Below, one piece after another: positions 244 through 4,934 of a stretch of 4,934 bases of DNA (positions are counted from its first letter, which is position 1; each line of letters opens with the position of its first letter). Source of the stretch: a virus (taxonomy: Duplodnaviria > Heunggongvirae > Uroviricota > Caudoviricetes); the IMG/VR virus record IMGVR_UViG_2623620491_000007; one strand, given 5' to 3'. The translations under genes were made by a program, and so were the position numbers. Below the pieces are notes generated by a model. That model did not search any database. It saw only the letters and a list, made by a program, of their open reading frames with translations, and had not been told where the DNA came from.

Positions 244-660
244 ATGGCAAAAGTATTTACACCAGAAGAGCGGGAAAAAATTAAAGGGCAGGTTGTTGAA
301 CTTGTACGTCTGAGCGGTCGCGAGACGTTACGGGCACTGGAGGCTAAAACCGGTGCATCAAGGTATTACATAAGCACTCTCGCCAGAGAACTGGTCGCCA
401 GTGGTGATGTTTACAATTCAGGCTACGGATTATTCCCGTCTGAGCAGGCGCGTAAAGACTGGCAAAACGCCCGCAAAAAACTATCCAGGGCAAAGGCGAA
501 GAAACCGGTTGTGGTTGATCCGGACCTTATCTGGTCATTACCTGACGGAGAAATACGTCGCTACGATAGCCGTCTAAACATAATCTGTAGCGAGTGCCGG
601 AAGAGTGAAGTTATGAAACGTGTACTGGCATTTTATCAGGGAAATCTTCGGTATTTATAG
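244..660 (+). CDS. ren: Ren-like protein (lambda Ren family, exclusion-associated), 138 aa from ATG 244
   Basis: C-terminal ...ICSECRKSEVMKRVLAFYQG resembles the lambda Ren C-terminus (...FKECRQSAAMKRVLAVYG...) as I recall it. SD GGAGG at 234-238 lies 5 nt before ATG 244; the ORF-track start at 229 is a TTG with no SD. An HTH-like segment GRETLRALEAKTGASRYYISTLARELVASG is present. Position after a replication-type gene matches lambda P-ren order. Confidence 0.55.
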   Translation: MAKVFTPEEREKIKGQVVELVRLSGRETLRALEAKTGASRYYISTLARELVASGDVYNSGYGLFPSEQARKDWQNARKKLSRAKAKKPVVVDPDLIWSLPDGEIRRYDSRLNIICSECRKSEVMKRVLAFYQGNLRYL

Positions 661-736
661 ACGTTACTAGATCAAAGAGCATTAGTTCATACGTAAATTG
701 ACATTTTTCTGGCACAGGGGAGAGCTAGCGTGGTTG

Positions 737-771
737 TCCGCTTTGTGCCAGAAGCGGAAGTTGCTAAAATG
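737..771. repeat. Left copy of a palindrome-containing repeat: TCCGCTTT-N7-AAGCGGA, then 5 nt, then CTAAAATG
   Basis: TCCGCTT (737-743) is the reverse complement of AAGCGGA (752-758), giving a 7 bp stem with an 8 nt loop; CTAAAATG follows at 764-771. The same blocks recur at 2959-2988. No T-run on either strand, so not an intrinsic terminator. Confidence 0.5.
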
Positions 772-867
772 GTTTACCGTGTCCAAAGGAGTCAGGGGCA
801 ACAACGCGATATTGCTGACTGAGGTTTGGATCTAATCCTAGGACATGTCAGGAGCAATGCTAATCTA

Positions 868-896
868 TTCATTAAAGCAGAGTATATGCCTATAAT
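868..896 (+). promoter_or_regulatory. Candidate sigma70 promoter for the AT-rich cassette (-35 TTCATT 868-873, 17 bp spacer, -10 TATAAT 891-896)
   Basis: Perfect -10 hexamer TATAAT at 891-896 with a weak -35; it sits about 85 nt upstream of the SD and ATG of the first cassette gene. AT-rich context means other hexamers are possible; not tested. Confidence 0.3.
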
Positions 897-979
897 TTAG
901 AACCTTGCTATGGACATGAAAATGTGTAACATGCAATAGATCTCTACACACAGCAGGATTCCTACACCAAGGAGTGTTT

Positions 980-1381
980 ATGATTAACGAATCCAGTCCT
1001 TTCCCAGACAACGAAATTATATCCTTCTATGACTGTACTGGCATGCCCATTTTTTATCTACATAGTGATGGTGAAAGTTTTTATCACTATGACGGAACCC
1101 CACTAGCCTATTTATATAATAATGAATATATAGTTTCATATTCAGGTCAGTATTTAGGTTGGCTATATAATGGGAGTATTATAGATTATAAAAATGGGGC
1201 TTATGTTTTTTTTACAGCTTATAGTTCTGGTGGGCCATCGCGACCAAGCCGAAAGTTTCGACCAAGTCGATTATCAAGAAAGAGCAGACCTGCTAAATTA
1301 AGTCGTAATAGTCGACCGTCACGACCTTCAAGACAAACCAGATGGAGCGAGCGAAGCAACATGAGTTTTTTCAGTAGTTAA
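980..1381 (+). CDS. Hypothetical small protein (133 aa) with a Tyr/Gly-rich repeated N-terminal domain and a basic Ser/Arg/Pro-rich repetitive tail
   Basis: SD AAGGAG at 969-974 lies 5 nt before ATG 980 (the ORF-track start at 974 is a GTG inside the SD). N-terminal half shows repeated motifs (FYDCTG..IFYL, SFYHYDGTPLAYLY, EYIVSYSGQYLGWLY, IIDYKNGAYVFF); C-terminal tail is SRPSRKFRPSRLSRKSRPAKLSRNSRPSRPSRQTR. Very AT-rich. Confidence 0.65.
   Translation: MINESSPFPDNEIISFYDCTGMPIFYLHSDGESFYHYDGTPLAYLYNNEYIVSYSGQYLGWLYNGSIIDYKNGAYVFFTAYSSGGPSRPSRKFRPSRLSRKSRPAKLSRNSRPSRPSRQTRWSERSNMSFFSS
1236..1335 (+). repeat. Degenerate in-frame tandem repeats (about 18 bp units, e.g. CGACCAAG at 1241-1248 and 1259-1266) encoding the SRPSR-type peptide repeats
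   Basis: Direct reading: CGACCAAG recurs 18 bp apart, with further TCGACC/CGACC units at 1312-1326; this corresponds to the repeated S-R-P-S-R peptide units in the protein tail. Confidence 0.5.
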
Positions 1382-1459
1382 ATTCTCGTTGTATTAAAAA
1401 ATAGATTGATTTGAAAGTTAGCATATTTACCTACTATCAAATAATGAAAAGGGTTAAAG

Positions 1460-2875
1460 ATGAGTAATCTTCCTACTACAGTAAATACAACCGCAGTAAC
1501 CACTGGTGTTGATAATTTCACAACGTCATTAACTACTTACCTCACCGATTTGAATCTTCCGGCAAAGGGCGTTTTAGTCGGCAATGATCAGAGGTACACT
1601 GTAATTGATAACTTCCCAAAGGTTATTGGTGGTATTGACAGTGCAAGGCGTTCAGATTCGTTATATCTATCAAAGTTTATTGCAGCGTGCGGCGCTGGCC
1701 TTTTTGATGCAGCACTCAATTTTTTATGGAATGAAACAGTAGTAAATTTGAGATGGAAGGTTTCCCTTAACGATATAGACTATTTTTATGACAGTATTGT
1801 CACTGACACAAAAAGAAGAGATAAGCTTAAAACTGTAGATGATTTAGTTAATATAGAGGAGTGGGAGCTTGTTAAGGGTTGCCACTTAACGGGATTACTT
1901 TCGGATATAGGTTTTAAACATCTTGATTATATAAGAGATATGAGGAACTGGGCTAGTGCAGCACATCCTAACCAAAGTCAGCTAACAGGATTCATGCTCA
2001 TCTCATGGCTTGAAACCTGCATCAAAGAAGTGATTGCGAAAGAACCAGAACCTTCTGCATTACAAATAAAGAGAGTACTATCTAACATCAGAGGCGCTAA
2101 CTTAGAAGGCGATGACTTAGCCCATATAAAATCTGCGATGGAAAGCTTACCTCAAGATGTTGTTGATTCTTTCTTAAGAACTATATTTGGGATGTATACT
2201 AATGATAACGCGGCTGTACAGGTTAAGAATAATATAAAAGGAATTGCAAAAAAATGTTGGGATCTTTCGTCAGAAACTACGAAGTATAGTTGTGGTATAA
2301 GATATCAATCTTTTGCAGCTAACGGAGAGAGAGCTAGGAAAGATGCGGCTAATGAGTTTTTAACTACTGTATCTGGTCTTCCATATCTTCCATCAGACTC
2401 TTTGGCTGTTGAAATATCAATCAGAGTGACAAATTTATACCAGGCCCATTTTGGATGGAATAATTTCCATAATGAACCTGCTCATGCATCCTCTTTGGCA
2501 GCATATATCTCCTCTGCTGGGAATGTCCCTGACTCAGTTCGATTTGAATATGTTAAGACTATAGTTTTGTGTTATTTGGGCAACAGCTATGGAGTGTCTA
2601 ATATGGCCGTTTCTTACTATGAAGAAATGATTGGTAAGTTCGGCGAGGCAGAGTTAAAAGAGTTCGTAAAAATAATTTATGATAAAGACGTGATATCTAG
2701 GCTTGCAACTCAAACATGTGCTTCTCGATATAAACATATAGCATCCAATTTTGTTAGCAGAACTACCAATCAAATAACCTCGCAAGCTCTTAATGCGATC
2801 ATAGCATCGACTGCTCTCCAGTTACCGAACCTATCGAAAGCAACGGCCTACGATAAACTTATTCGCTCATACTAA
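1460..2875 (+). CDS. Hypothetical protein, 471 aa, no recognisable catalytic or NTP-binding motif; candidate effector of a phage-exclusion/defence cassette
   Basis: Long uninterrupted ORF in AT-rich DNA; SD-like AAAAGGG at 1447-1453 lies 6 nt before ATG 1460; stop TAA at 2873-2875 is followed by an intrinsic terminator. Thr-rich low-complexity N-terminus (residues about 5-27). One R-x6-H element (R162...H169, RNWASAAH, nt 1943-1966) is reminiscent of, but not diagnostic for, HEPN-type Rx4-6H motifs. No Walker A, no nucleotidyltransferase, RT, TIR or Sir2 signatures seen by eye. Confidence 0.8.
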   Translation: MSNLPTTVNTTAVTTGVDNFTTSLTTYLTDLNLPAKGVLVGNDQRYTVIDNFPKVIGGIDSARRSDSLYLSKFIAACGAGLFDAALNFLWNETVVNLRWKVSLNDIDYFYDSIVTDTKRRDKLKTVDDLVNIEEWELVKGCHLTGLLSDIGFKHLDYIRDMRNWASAAHPNQSQLTGFMLISWLETCIKEVIAKEPEPSALQIKRVLSNIRGANLEGDDLAHIKSAMESLPQDVVDSFLRTIFGMYTNDNAAVQVKNNIKGIAKKCWDLSSETTKYSCGIRYQSFAANGERARKDAANEFLTTVSGLPYLPSDSLAVEISIRVTNLYQAHFGWNNFHNEPAHASSLAAYISSAGNVPDSVRFEYVKTIVLCYLGNSYGVSNMAVSYYEEMIGKFGEAELKEFVKIIYDKDVISRLATQTCASRYKHIASNFVSRTTNQITSQALNAIIASTALQLPNLSKATAYDKLIRSY

Positions 2876-2911
2876 ATACTGTGAGGCAAAAACAGGCTTG
2901 GATCAGATAAC

Positions 2912-2938
2912 AGCCCTCTCTATTCGAGGGCTTTTTTG
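2912..2938 (+). terminator. Rho-independent terminator ending the AT-rich cassette
   Basis: Stem AGCCCTC (2912-2918), loop TCTATTC, stem GAGGGCT (2926-2932), then TTTTTTG; it lies 37 nt after the TAA of the 471-aa gene. Confidence 0.65.
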
Positions 2939-2958
2939 TAGGAATGCTTAATTGAATA

Positions 2959-2988
2959 TCCGCTTTTCGCTCAAAGCGGACTAAAATG
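2959..2988. repeat. Right copy of the palindrome-containing repeat: TCCGCTTT-N7-AAGCGGA directly followed by CTAAAATG
   Basis: TCCGCTTT (2959-2966) pairs with AAAGCGGA (2973-2980) around a 6 nt loop; CTAAAATG at 2981-2988. Blocks are identical to the left copy at 737-771 apart from the loop and a 5 nt insertion in the left copy. Confidence 0.5.
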
Positions 2989-3027
2989 TTGGCTTGTGTC
3001 TGACTTAGAGCATTTAAGGAAGTGCTG

Positions 3028-3246
3028 GTGGTGACTGGTTGTTGTGTTCCATTTCTACAGAACAAAATCACAGAAACTATACCCAATAGTTGTATTGAAT
3101 CACTGACGAGACAGCCTCATATTTATCAGGACTGGTGTGCGTCTAATACAGGAGGTTGTCGTGCTGGTTCTCAAATGTGCGCTGGCTATTGCGGCTGTAA
3201 TGGCAATTTATTGTCTTGCTATTGTTCTTATGGATCGCCTTTTTGA
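3028..3246 (+). CDS. Possible small cysteine-rich protein (about 72 aa, 14 Cys); coding status uncertain
   Basis: ORF-track frame 3022-3246. AAGGAAG at 3015-3021 is too close to GTG 3022, so GTG 3028 or 3031 is the more plausible start. C-terminal CAGYCGCNGNLLSCYCSYGSPF is Cys-dense. No homolog recalled; it fills the gap between the cassette terminator and the hok promoter. Confidence 0.2.
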   Translation: MVTGCCVPFLQNKITETIPNSCIESLTRQPHIYQDWCASNTGGCRAGSQMCAGYCGCNGNLLSCYCSYGSPF

Positions 3247-3257
3247 CTGATTTCATA

Positions 3258-3286
3258 TTGGCGAGGTAACGGGAGTTAAGTAGAAT
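3258..3286 (+). promoter_or_regulatory. Candidate promoter of the mok/hok mRNA (-35 TTGGCG 3258-3263, 17 bp spacer, -10 TAGAAT 3281-3286)
   Basis: Hexamers with canonical spacing; the predicted start near 3293 gives a leader of about 113 nt before mok and a transcript of about 420 nt to the terminator, in line with hok-family mRNAs. The predicted 5' end is complementary to a segment downstream of hok. Confidence 0.35.
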
Positions 3287-3405
3287 GCCTGCGGGTGCTT
3301 GGGGCTATCTGTCTCAGGCATGAACACCAAAAGGCAGATAGAGAAGAGCCCCAGTTAACATTACGCGTCCTGCAAGACGCTTAACATTAATCTGAGGCTC
3401 AATCT

Positions 3406-3618
3406 ATGAACGGCAAATCTAGGTTAGCCTCTTACGTGCCGAAAGGCAAGGAGAAGCAGGCTATGAAGCAGCAAAAGGCGATGTTAATCGCCCTGATCGT
3501 CATCTGTTTAACCGTCATAGTGACGGCGCTGGTAACGAGGAAAGACCTCTGCGAGGTACGAATCCGAACCGGCCAGACGGAGGTCGCTGTCTTCACAGCT
3601 TACGAATCTGAGGAGTAA
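3406..3618 (+). CDS. mok: Mok-like reading frame: in-frame N-terminal extension of hok whose translation enables hok translation (70 aa)
   Basis: ATG 3406 is preceded by GAGG at 3394-3397 (8 nt spacing) and runs in frame through hok to the same stop. This mirrors chromosomal mokC/hokC annotation, where both share a stop, as I recall it. Confidence 0.5.
   Translation: MNGKSRLASYVPKGKEKQAMKQQKAMLIALIVICLTVIVTALVTRKDLCEVRIRTGQTEVAVFTAYESEE
3463..3618 (+). CDS. hok: Hok/Gef-family type I toxin (small membrane-depolarising peptide), 51 aa
   Basis: Translation MKQQKAMLIALIVICLTVIVTALVTRKDLCEVRIRTGQTEVAVFTAYESEE matches the Hok/Gef/RelF family: hydrophobic transmembrane helix followed by the conserved TRKxLCE..R..G..EVAAF/VF..YE block. 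Closest to HokD/RelF and Gef from memory. SD AAGGAG at 3448-3453 lies 9 nt before ATG 3463; stop TAA 3616-3618. Confidence 0.85.
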   Translation: MKQQKAMLIALIVICLTVIVTALVTRKDLCEVRIRTGQTEVAVFTAYESEE

Positions 3619-3676
3619 GAGACCCGGCGGGGGAGAAATCCCTCGCCACCTCTGATGTGTCAGGCATTCTCAACGC

Positions 3677-3710
3677 ACCCGCATTTAACCCGTTTCGGCG
3701 GGTTTTTTGT
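3677..3710 (+). terminator. Rho-independent terminator of the hok transcript
   Basis: GC-rich hairpin (AACCCG 3687-3692, loop TTTCGG, CGGGTT 3699-3704; alternatively ACCCGC 3677-3682 with GCGGGT 3698-3703) running into TTTTTTGTT at 3703-3711. Confidence 0.55.
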
Positions 3711-3893
3711 TGCGCGCTGAATACGCAGGGGGAAAAATAACCATATATTTGATTATATACACAACAAAAAATAAAAGTCATTGTACCTGCACATTAAACA
3801 ATCCAATATACGGCGTGAAATAAATATTTTTCAGATTAATATTTTTGTCTCTATGTGGATATAACCGTTTGTACTTATAAACCTGGAGGCATC

Positions 3894-4106
3894 GTGGAAA
3901 AAATAAAGAAACTATTTAGTAGCAAATACGCAGTCATACGTCGTGATGACCTGTCAGTTATAGTCGAAATGGATTACTTCCCTGAAACCCCAAAATCAAT
4001 GATGTATCGTAATGGTCGAAAGGTAATTTTTTTACCGATGAGGGTAAGTGACATTATGGGAAATGATAAACTGCTGGATGAATTGCGAGTCAGAGCATCC
4101 TGTTAG
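3894..4106 (+). CDS. Hypothetical small phage protein (about 70 aa from GTG 3894)
   Basis: ORF-track frame 3855-4106. The best start is GTG 3894, 4 nt after GGAGG (3885-3889). It is preceded by an AT-rich, promoter-like intergenic region and ends 71 nt before the DUF1367-like gene. No motif recognised. Confidence 0.35.
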   Translation: MEKIKKLFSSKYAVIRRDDLSVIVEMDYFPETPKSMMYRNGRKVIFLPMRVSDIMGNDKLLDELRVRASC

Positions 4107-4177
4107 TATTGGCATTAATTCTGTTATACTACATAACGGGCTGAACACCCATTCTACTGCGCCAGCGGAGAACTACG

Positions 4178-4777
4178 ATGGCGCATATACAACTGGTCAA
4201 ACAAACCTCTTCCGGATTACTTCTCCCGGCGACGCCGGAGAGTTGCGATTTTTTGCATCAAATCAAAATAGGTGAGTGGATACACGCAGACTTTAAGCGT
4301 GTGCGTAACTACGCATTTCACAAGCGTTTTTTTAAACTCCTGCAACTGGGATTCGATTACTGGACTCCGAGCGGTGGGGTGATCACGCCTCGAGAACGAG
4401 AACTGGTATCAGGCTTCGTTGAGTACCTGTGCGAATCAGTAGGTCGGGAACATACGCCAGCTCTGAGCGAAGCCGCAGAGCAATATCTGAATACAGTTGC
4501 AACACGCAGAACCCGGGATACGGCCTTACTCAAGTCATTTGACGCTTTTCGCGAATGGGTAACCATTCAGGCCGGATTTTACACCGAACATTTTTATCCG
4601 GACGGTAGTCGTGGGCGCAGGGCAAAATCTATCGCATTTGCGAACATGGACGAAACCGAGTTTCAGCAGGTTTATAAATCTGTACTGAATGTGCTGTGGA
4701 ACTGGATCCTGTTCCGTAAATTTTCCTCTCCGGAGGAAGTCGAAAATGTGGCCGCACAGTTACTGGAGTTTGCGTAA
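4178..4777 (+). CDS. DUF1367-family lambdoid phage protein (nin-region gene), 199 aa
   Basis: GGAG at 4166-4169 lies 8 nt before ATG 4178. The product (MAHIQLVKQTSSG...FHKRFFKLLQLGFDYW...) matches my recollection of the conserved DUF1367 proteins found upstream of DUF1364/rusA/Q in lambdoid prophages. Stop TAA 4775-4777. Confidence 0.8.
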   Translation: MAHIQLVKQTSSGLLLPATPESCDFLHQIKIGEWIHADFKRVRNYAFHKRFFKLLQLGFDYWTPSGGVITPRERELVSGFVEYLCESVGREHTPALSEAAEQYLNTVATRRTRDTALLKSFDAFREWVTIQAGFYTEHFYPDGSRGRRAKSIAFANMDETEFQQVYKSVLNVLWNWILFRKFSSPEEVENVAAQLLEFA

Positions 4778-4934
4778 TGGTGGATTTACGTAAAGCGGCG
4801 CGGGGGCAGATGTGCACCGTCAGAATTCCTGGCTACTGCAATCACAATCCCGAAACTTCTGTGCTGGCGCATTACAGGCTGGCGGGGACGTGCGGAACAG
4901 CGACAAAACCACACGATATGCAGGCAGCGATTGC
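4777..4934 (+). CDS. DUF1364-family (YbcO-like) Cys-rich lambdoid phage protein, 5' portion; continues past the window end
   Basis: ATG 4777-4779 overlaps the preceding stop (TAATG). Translation MVDLRKAARGQMCTVRIPGYCNHNPETSVLAHYRLAGTCGTATKPHDMQAAIA resembles the YbcO/DUF1364 N-terminus (MxDLRKAARG..C.VRIPG.CN.NPETSVLAH.R) from memory. Confidence 0.8.
   Translation, partial: MVDLRKAARGQMCTVRIPGYCNHNPETSVLAHYRLAGTCGTATKPHDMQAAI

Follow-up and report, generated by a model that had tools for sequence, protein, structure and literature searches.

Two single-gene phage defence candidates in a palindrome-bounded cargo cassette of a Rac-type prophage

The HEPN superfamily, which Anantharaman and colleagues reportedly defined in 2013, includes abortive-infection proteins and toxins such as DUF4145, AbiV, AbiD/F, AbiJ, ApeA, Tha and the MNT-HEPN toxins. 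Cernunnos is a single-gene cassette of the Vibrio cholerae N16961 integron, which encodes a PF21784 domain and gives phage resistance. Its authors, who took a blastp match to the V. cholerae protein with E < 1e-5 and at least 50% coverage as their criterion, placed its homologues preferentially in Escherichia prophages and Bacteroidota (Darracq et al., bioRxiv 10.1101/2024.07.02.601686), and an independent screen recovered it again. The PF21784 domain adopts the beta-flower fold, in which eight short antiparallel strands form four hairpins (Durairaj et al. 2023, PMC10584680), and Cernunnos is the sole functional datum for it. Here we analysed a 4,934-nt stretch of phage DNA, record IMGVR_UViG_2623620491_000007 (hereafter the window, to which all positions refer), harbouring a cassette of two open reading frames (ORFs). 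ORF1 encodes a beta-flower protein and ORF2 a protein with a predicted HEPN-like domain.

The cassette is located in the DUF977-hok interval of a Rac-type prophage, an interval that holds known defence systems in other prophages. Because of this slot position and the domain content of its genes, the cassette is a good candidate for phage defence. On balance we think it probable that this is a mobile cargo cassette in a DUF977-hok hotspot, carrying two independent single-gene defence candidates of the abortive-infection type. The features of the cassette are the following.

736-2981, plus strand: whole mobile cargo cassette, 2,246 bp, 38.3% guanine plus cytosine (GC).
737-758, no strand assigned: left boundary palindrome TCCGCTT-TGTGCCAG-AAGCGGA, an inverted copy of the right site.
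868-896, plus strand: promoter-like site, with -35 TTCATT at 868-873, a 17-nt spacer and a perfect -10 TATAAT at 891-896.
980-1381, plus strand: ORF1, 133 amino acids from the ATG at 980, with a strong Shine-Dalgarno sequence (AAGGAG) 7 nt upstream.
1418-1445, plus strand: weak promoter-like site TTAGCA-16-AATAAT, within the 78-nt gap, 5' of ORF2.
1460-2875, plus strand: ORF2, 471 amino acids.
1943-1966, plus strand: candidate HEPN Rx4-6H catalytic motif of ORF2, R162-N-W-A-S-A-A-H169, with R162, N163 and H169 invariant in 45 homologues.
2912-2940, plus strand: intrinsic terminator, with a hairpin at 2912-2932 (7-bp stem AGCCCTC/GAGGGCT, five G-C pairs, 7-nt loop) followed by T6.
2959-2980, no strand assigned: right boundary palindrome TCCGCTT-TTCGCTCA-AAGCGGA, an inverted copy of the left site.

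ORF2 is predicted to be all-alpha, with a HEPN-like domain at approximately residues 60-195, which has the helical-bundle fold of HEPN proteins, and a helical-repeat C-terminal half at approximately residues 200-471. Proteins listed alongside the HEPN assignment are the SO_3166 HEPN toxin (5yep), HI0074, the sacsin HEPN domain, Roquin, Csm6, AbiA and the MNT-HEPN toxins. In the alignment of the 45 homologues (47-85% identical to the window protein), the block H154..Y157-I158-R159..R162-N163-W-A-S-A-A-H169-P-N was invariant. Its R162-N-x5-H169 core fits Rx4-6H, with a polar residue after the arginine, as is usual, and a spacing of 6, which is the upper limit. The best local match between the ORF2 profile and a DUF4145 (HEPN) protein in hhalign fell on this motif (RDMRNWASAAH against RKLRNEAS--H) and was not significant; nor was the hhalign comparison with an AbiV-HEPN protein. 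The sole family match of ORF2 was PHROG 27609, which has no assigned function. Searches of PDB sequences with the single protein and with the profile returned only noise, and Foldseek gave no significant global match against PDB and viral models. Judged from its sequence and predicted fold, ORF2 is probably a HEPN-type protein and a ribonuclease.

A second invariant cluster was observed in the C-terminal half of ORF2, at residues 330-380 (positions 2447-2599). It comprises H330, N335-F336, E339, A343 and G374-N375..G378-S380 (consensus AH.G.NNF.NEP.HA ... GNGYG.S), and could form another active site or bind a ligand.

ORF2 homologues formed more than 1,722 clusters (90% identity), with a nearly constant length of approximately 471 amino acids. 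They were found at 40-66% identity in species-representative genomes of many bacterial phyla and of archaea; small plasmids from Clostridium, Bacillus and Acinetobacter carry them as well. The ratio of non-synonymous to synonymous substitution rates (dN/dS) was 0.05-0.07 in ORF2, indicating strong purifying selection. The homologues were frequently accompanied by defence genes, a qualitative observation that was taken without a background rate. Among 142 neighbours at 45 diverse loci, the PADLOC matches at E <= 1e-10 included AriA, GajA/PtuA-type ATPases, MADS, NsnB, AbiLi, a type I methyltransferase and several candidate systems. In Proteus, the ORF pair is part of an integrase island at smpB, with a SMODS and S_4TM pair directly after it; the ORF2 homologue of Enterobacter hormaechei has DUF4145 and a CD-NTase/Cap15 pair as its neighbours. 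Contig CACSKA010000007.1, labelled 'Chryseobacterium sp. 18061', harbours a 66% identical ORF2 homologue, a convergent DUF4145 gene and boundary sites of the enterobacterial type. The same unit (66% identical ORF2 homologue and convergent DUF4145) is present in E. hormaechei, which points to a recent transfer or to a mislabelled or contaminated assembly.

The Pfam model PF21784 (4-fold beta flower, Bflower; 116 positions, cut-off 25 bits) recognised ORF1 with 97.6 bits (E = 7.8e-28), its positions 2-116 aligning to residues 15-131; the RefSeq name of ORF1 is 4-fold beta flower too. The AlphaFold2 model shows eight strands in residues 14-78, with a predicted local distance difference test score of 84-91 and low confidence in the C-terminal region. 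The glycines at the hairpin turns were invariant, or nearly so, across 23 sequences. The tail (approximately residues 84-125) is basic and rich in Ser, Arg and Pro (GGPSRPSRKSRPSR...RWSE.SN.SFF), and was kept in all 22 close homologues. An exhaustive profile search of 1.84 billion representatives recovered 404 representative clusters at E <= 1e-3, 129 at E <= 1e-10 and four at E <= 1e-30, with most members of the family having 115-125 amino acids. By these sequence comparisons ORF1 belongs to a small subfamily. It had no match in PADLOC-DB v2 (E <= 1) or in NCBIfam. Its dN/dS was 0.23, indicating purifying selection.

The original prediction treated both genes as a single two-gene module in which neither protein had a known defence signature. 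Neither part was supported: ORF1 carries the domain of Cernunnos, ORF2 has a predicted HEPN fold and motif, and the genes occur apart in most contexts. Partners of ORF2 were searched for at 70 ORF2 loci from other species, using a beta-flower hidden Markov model and all-against-all clustering of the neighbours, and neither a beta-flower gene nor any conserved neighbour was present at any of the 70. Conversely, relatives of ORF1 were found without ORF2 in Pectobacterium (88% identical), in Scalindua and in metagenome contigs, where their neighbours were NERD, SMC-like, AbiV or housekeeping genes. By genomic context, ORF1 fits a single-gene layout: what surrounds its relatives in Pectobacterium, in Scalindua and in four further types of contig is unrelated. 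ORF2 was intact and constrained where ORF1 was broken: in Proteus, ORF1 is frameshifted (annotated as 114 amino acids; 4952-5345 in the Proteus loci), and on a Pantoea plasmid it is a 3' remnant (5001-5180 in that locus), its 5' part having been replaced by a 392-amino-acid protein and HerA-type ATPase pair. ORF2 identity was 92-97% in the Proteus and Pantoea plasmid copies, and the plasmid copy retains only approximately 200 nt of upstream cassette sequence. The separate occurrence of the genes, the decay of ORF1 beside an intact ORF2 and the differing selection lead us to read the cassette as two independent single-gene modules, linked by chance.

Alternatively, the two genes might form one obligate system, with the beta-flower protein sensing for, or regulating, the HEPN effector; the basic Ser/Arg tail of ORF1 might, for example, bind the helical-repeat half of ORF2. 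The genes are co-oriented, their 78-nt spacing is fixed (it is the same in E. coli, in Enterobacter mori and related contigs, and in Proteus mirabilis), no terminator was found between them in our scan, and the pair travels jointly in E. coli, Enterobacter and Proteus. Furthermore, the weak Foldseek matches of ORF2 (E = 0.02-0.2) were to armadillo/importin-like repeats, which bind basic peptides, but these matches were not significant (template modelling score <= 0.3). We consider an obligate system unlikely, given the 70 of 70 loci without a beta-flower gene or conserved partner, the different neighbours of the ORF1 relatives and the constrained ORF2 beside a frameshifted or truncated ORF1. 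A toxin-antitoxin or addiction module, with a HEPN toxin and ORF1 as the antitoxin, would stabilise the cassette or the prophage rather than defend against phages. This we hold to be highly improbable: the ORF2 homologues are solitary in nearly all genomes and have no conserved small partner, Proteus and Pantoea lost ORF1 and kept ORF2, and the fold of ORF1 is not MNT-type or that of another known antitoxin. A type II toxin-antitoxin pair was rejected, as the genes are separable and their adjacency is not conserved across the 70 ORF2 loci.

If the cassette carries two independent defence genes, it would probably be expressed in the lysogen from its own promoter. ORF2 would be a HEPN ribonuclease that its helical-repeat C-terminal half keeps inactive until a phage component is detected; once triggered, the R162/N163/H169 site would cut host or phage RNA and translation would stop. 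ORF1 would be a Cernunnos-type beta-flower protein, whose beta-barrel and basic Ser/Arg-rich tail would act alone. Some results weigh against this explanation. All the Enterobacterales copies with an ORF2 of at least 97% identity have ORF1 or its remnant upstream, with the 78-nt spacing, and some cooperation between ORF1 and ORF2 is therefore possible. ORF2 matched no Pfam family (HEPN families included, E up to 10), no NCBIfam family and no PADLOC-DB v2 defence model (E up to 1). In addition, the promoter-like site at 868-896 was missed by the consensus scan, because its -35 fits only three of six positions, and it is weak by consensus.

The DUF977-hok interval is a real defence hotspot. In other E. 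coli prophages the slot harboured the following cargo.

Strain D3: 1,210-amino-acid YobI-type nucleoside triphosphatase (NTPase), Tmn-like; PADLOC E 1e-66.
Strain 2013C-4991: CBASS cyclase and 2TM effector; PADLOC E 5e-144 and 1e-84.
Strain EC25: PD-T7-1 and a 200-amino-acid integrase; PADLOC E 7e-157.
Strain C012: PDC-M68A-like nuclease; PADLOC E 2.2e-22.
Strain S1-SRB-02-B: DUF4209 protein, PDC-S39; PADLOC E 8e-103.
Phage 666R9: BstA-like protein; PADLOC E 3.2e-21.

In strain A20 the slot is almost empty, and the left and right sites lie approximately 230 nt apart in non-coding DNA between DUF977 and hokD (A20 locus, 1500-1890). As A20 keeps both sites without cargo, both belong to the phage backbone. 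We found no description in the literature of a DUF977-hok slot in Rac/Qin-type prophages. Since the boundary site is present in approximately 29-45% of complete E. coli genomes, the slot is a cheap place to mine for systems.

Cargo serving the phage or the host outside defence (RNA processing, host takeover, counter-defence, or a surface or virulence role) was also considered. Both protein families are without known function, PHROG 27609 is unassigned, and early discussion of beta-flower proteins raised a possible association with lipids or membranes (PMC10584680). However, the slot and the neighbourhoods of the homologues are dominated by defence genes, and Cernunnos has a measured anti-phage phenotype. 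Moreover, a tblastn search of 50,697 sequenced phage records with both proteins returned no match for ORF2 and a single weak match, in a Rhizobium phage, for ORF1. A role outside defence seems distinctly unlikely.

The original prediction described the cassette as an AT-rich phage moron with its own promoter and terminator, inserted between ren and the nin-type genes. Its two co-oriented ORFs (133 and 471 amino acids, 78 bp apart) were confirmed at 980-1381 and 1460-2875. They are beyond chance, because they have many homologues, are under purifying selection and lie in a segment absent from related phages. AT-richness was real but milder than the earlier hand count of roughly 28-38% GC: the computed value was 38.3% for 736-2981, compared to 49.0% in the left and 46.2% in the right flank, with a range of 33%-43.5% across 200-nt windows, and the 28% lower bound fits short stretches only. 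GC was 37.6% in ORF1 (26% at third codon positions), 38.2% in ORF2 (31% at third codon positions) and 24% in the intergenic gap (1382-1459, 78 nt). Of the proposed promoter, the -10 at 891-896 stood, CTATAAT being unchanged in five diverged cassette copies, one of them the 80%-identical Pectobacterium copy; its -35 was poor and the site was not called by the scan. We regard an upstream promoter as plausible from these features. The intrinsic terminator was found as predicted, and its stem was kept in all the cassette copies. The 244-nt leader (736-979) was examined as a structured RNA, and this was rejected (no Rfam match, folding z-score of -0.21). As to placement, the gene 5' of the cassette is DUF977, with the PHROG label 'Ren-like exclusion protein', but it is distinct from lambda ren, and hok/sok comes next downstream. 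The cassette was also expected to lie where accessory exclusion and defence genes accumulate, and comparison with related prophages indeed revealed a variable position, elsewhere holding known defence systems. The moron interpretation agreed with the absence from related phages, the foreign composition and the cassette's own terminator; its promoter is putative, with a conserved -10 and a weak -35. The same segment was 93-94% identical in Enterobacter and Proteus loci over exactly 736-2981, with unrelated flanks. Together, these results support a cargo segment that was inserted, is foreign in composition and probably brings its own expression signals.

Read outward, both 22-nt boundary palindromes show a single site, TCCGCTYYTSGCWC and then AAAGCGGAC, in inverted orientation. 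The outer arm and the flank stay constant within E. coli while the cargo and the inner arm vary; between genera, the inner arm and the centre follow the cargo and the outer arm varies with the backbone. In 42 of the 5,426 complete E. coli genomes the left site (33-44 nt) marks the beginning of other cargo, and the right site with its outer flank was found in 1,586 of them, approximately 450 nt upstream of hokD. A query of the two joined outer flanks matched 2,424 genomes, mostly via its right half. The motif also closes the adjoining Enterobacter and Proteus cassettes (SMODS and S_4TM) and bounds units in Pantoea and E. hormaechei. In 1 Mb of examined loci it clustered at cassette boundaries, with approximately four matches expected by chance. 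Paired changes in both arms of each site preserved the palindrome in strain C012. Other palindrome-bounded defence cargo was located at 288-4520 of locus L097, 4640-7900 of L085 and 5016-8030 of L095, in the same prophage slot or in Enterobacter, Proteus or Pantoea islands. A 200-amino-acid tyrosine recombinase with only the catalytic domain (PF00589, E = 1e-16) lies between such sites in E. hormaechei (twice) and in EC25; in strain 2013C-4991 it is a pseudogene.

This pattern looks like site-specific cargo exchange or inversion. As the sites are inverted, inversion is predicted rather than excision. The window itself holds no recombinase, which counts against site-specific exchange. An integron gene cassette was ruled out, as there is neither attC nor IntI and 22-nt palindromes are inverted at both ends. 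Nothing specific on the boundary sites or on the small recombinase was found in the literature. A bolder proposal, which we regard as possible and quite tentative, joins an undescribed Enterobacterales cargo-exchange system with ORF2 as the founder of a novel HEPN defence family that consists of single genes and is very widespread. In this exchange system, defence genes (the ORF pair, CBASS, PD-T7-1, the Tmn-like NTPase and others) would be bounded by inverted palindromes of approximately 22-45 bp (TCCGCTYYTSGCWC-AAAGCGGAC). The sites would be recognised by the 200-amino-acid catalytic-domain-only tyrosine recombinase, located between cassettes in some arrays. At the lambdoid DUF977-hok slot, and likewise in islands on chromosomes and plasmids, the system would load, exchange or invert such cargo. 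Together with the small recombinase, the boundary sites point to a testable way in which prophages might exchange their defence genes.

In E. coli LSN03-016011/A, the window has its match in a Rac-type prophage that is inserted at ttcA. The order in that prophage is intR, xisR, recET and kilR, the repressor region and ydaT/U/V, DUF1627 and DUF977, both ORFs, and DUF1367 and DUF1364. Related phages have positions 1-649 and 3281 onwards in common, with other genes between them, and the two-gene segment was present in two of the 5,426 complete E. coli genomes. On the 3' side of the cassette, the window continues with hok/sok, DUF1367 and DUF1364. The first of these is complete.

3293-3618: hok/sok, with Rfam sok at 3293-3468 (104 bits, E = 1.2e-23) and Pfam HOK_GEF.

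The Hok/Gef ORF ends at 3618; if translated from 3406 it would encode 70 amino acids, with the Hok domain at residues 25-66. Some further elements were observed around it. Between the cassette and sok/hok, a 28-codon ORF (3161-3247, plus strand) has a GTG start, a strong AGGAGG 5 nt upstream and no Pfam match; its hydrophobic product, MLVLKCALAIAAVMAIYCLAIVLMDRLF, looks like a small membrane peptide or a type I toxin. Directly 3' of hok, positions 3627-3708 gave a sub-threshold match to the isrK Hfq-binding small RNA (26.6 bits; gathering score 50), and this stretch closes with a terminator-like hairpin at 3687-3704. GC is low for a second time (32-38%) over 3700-4110, which includes an 83-amino-acid ORF (3855-4106) of PHROG 1813, which has no assigned function. 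In EC25 an annotated Rem protein occupies this position, and Rem was rejected for the window ORF, as it has no similarity to that protein. Finally, PP818812.1, labelled 'Actinobacillus phage vB_Apl-pPE4', is 97% identical to positions 3273-4934 (hok to DUF1364), a stretch otherwise typical of E. coli lambdoid prophages. The record may carry a mistaken host label, or both may have this backbone in common.

The cassette can be compared with several known systems. ORF1 is likened to Cernunnos through the common PF21784 domain; it is likewise a small, single-domain protein encoded by a stand-alone gene, and the spread reported for Cernunnos homologues (Escherichia prophages and Bacteroidota) fits that of the ORF1 relatives. 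Look-ups of the ORF1-related clusters surfaced no Vibrio member. Unlike Cernunnos, ORF1 is located in a palindrome-bounded prophage cassette and not between attC sites. ORF1 would open the Cernunnos/beta-flower family to study through a gene native to E. coli.

ORF2 resembles the HEPN abortive-infection proteins in its predicted HEPN-like bundle, in the invariant R-N-x5-H, in its single-gene layout and in its defence-island and prophage neighbourhoods. It differs from them in matching no HEPN profile of Pfam, PADLOC or NCBIfam, and in a helical-repeat C-terminal half of 270 residues with invariant motifs of its own (H330, NNFxNEPxHA and GNGYG), for which there is no known counterpart. If ORF2 does protect against phages, it would represent a new single-gene HEPN defence family missed by current tools.

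With phage morons and prophage hotspots (the lambda rexAB/ren region and P2/P4), the locus has in common AT-rich extra DNA with a promoter-like site and a terminator, lying between conserved phage genes. As in the P2/P4 hotspots (Rousset et al. 2022, PMC9122126), the defence systems in the slot differ between prophages; in contrast to these hotspots, the cargo here is bounded by specific palindromic sites. This latter feature is closer to the recombinase-driven cassettes (integron attC/IntI, Xer/dif modules and shufflons), in which short sites that are imperfect palindromes flank varied promoter-bearing cargo, and in which arrays of units occur, some with a tyrosine recombinase. The sites described here do not resemble attC and there is no IntI. 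The paired sites are mutually inverted, and the recombinase, a protein of 200 amino acids that has the catalytic domain only, is known here from sequence.

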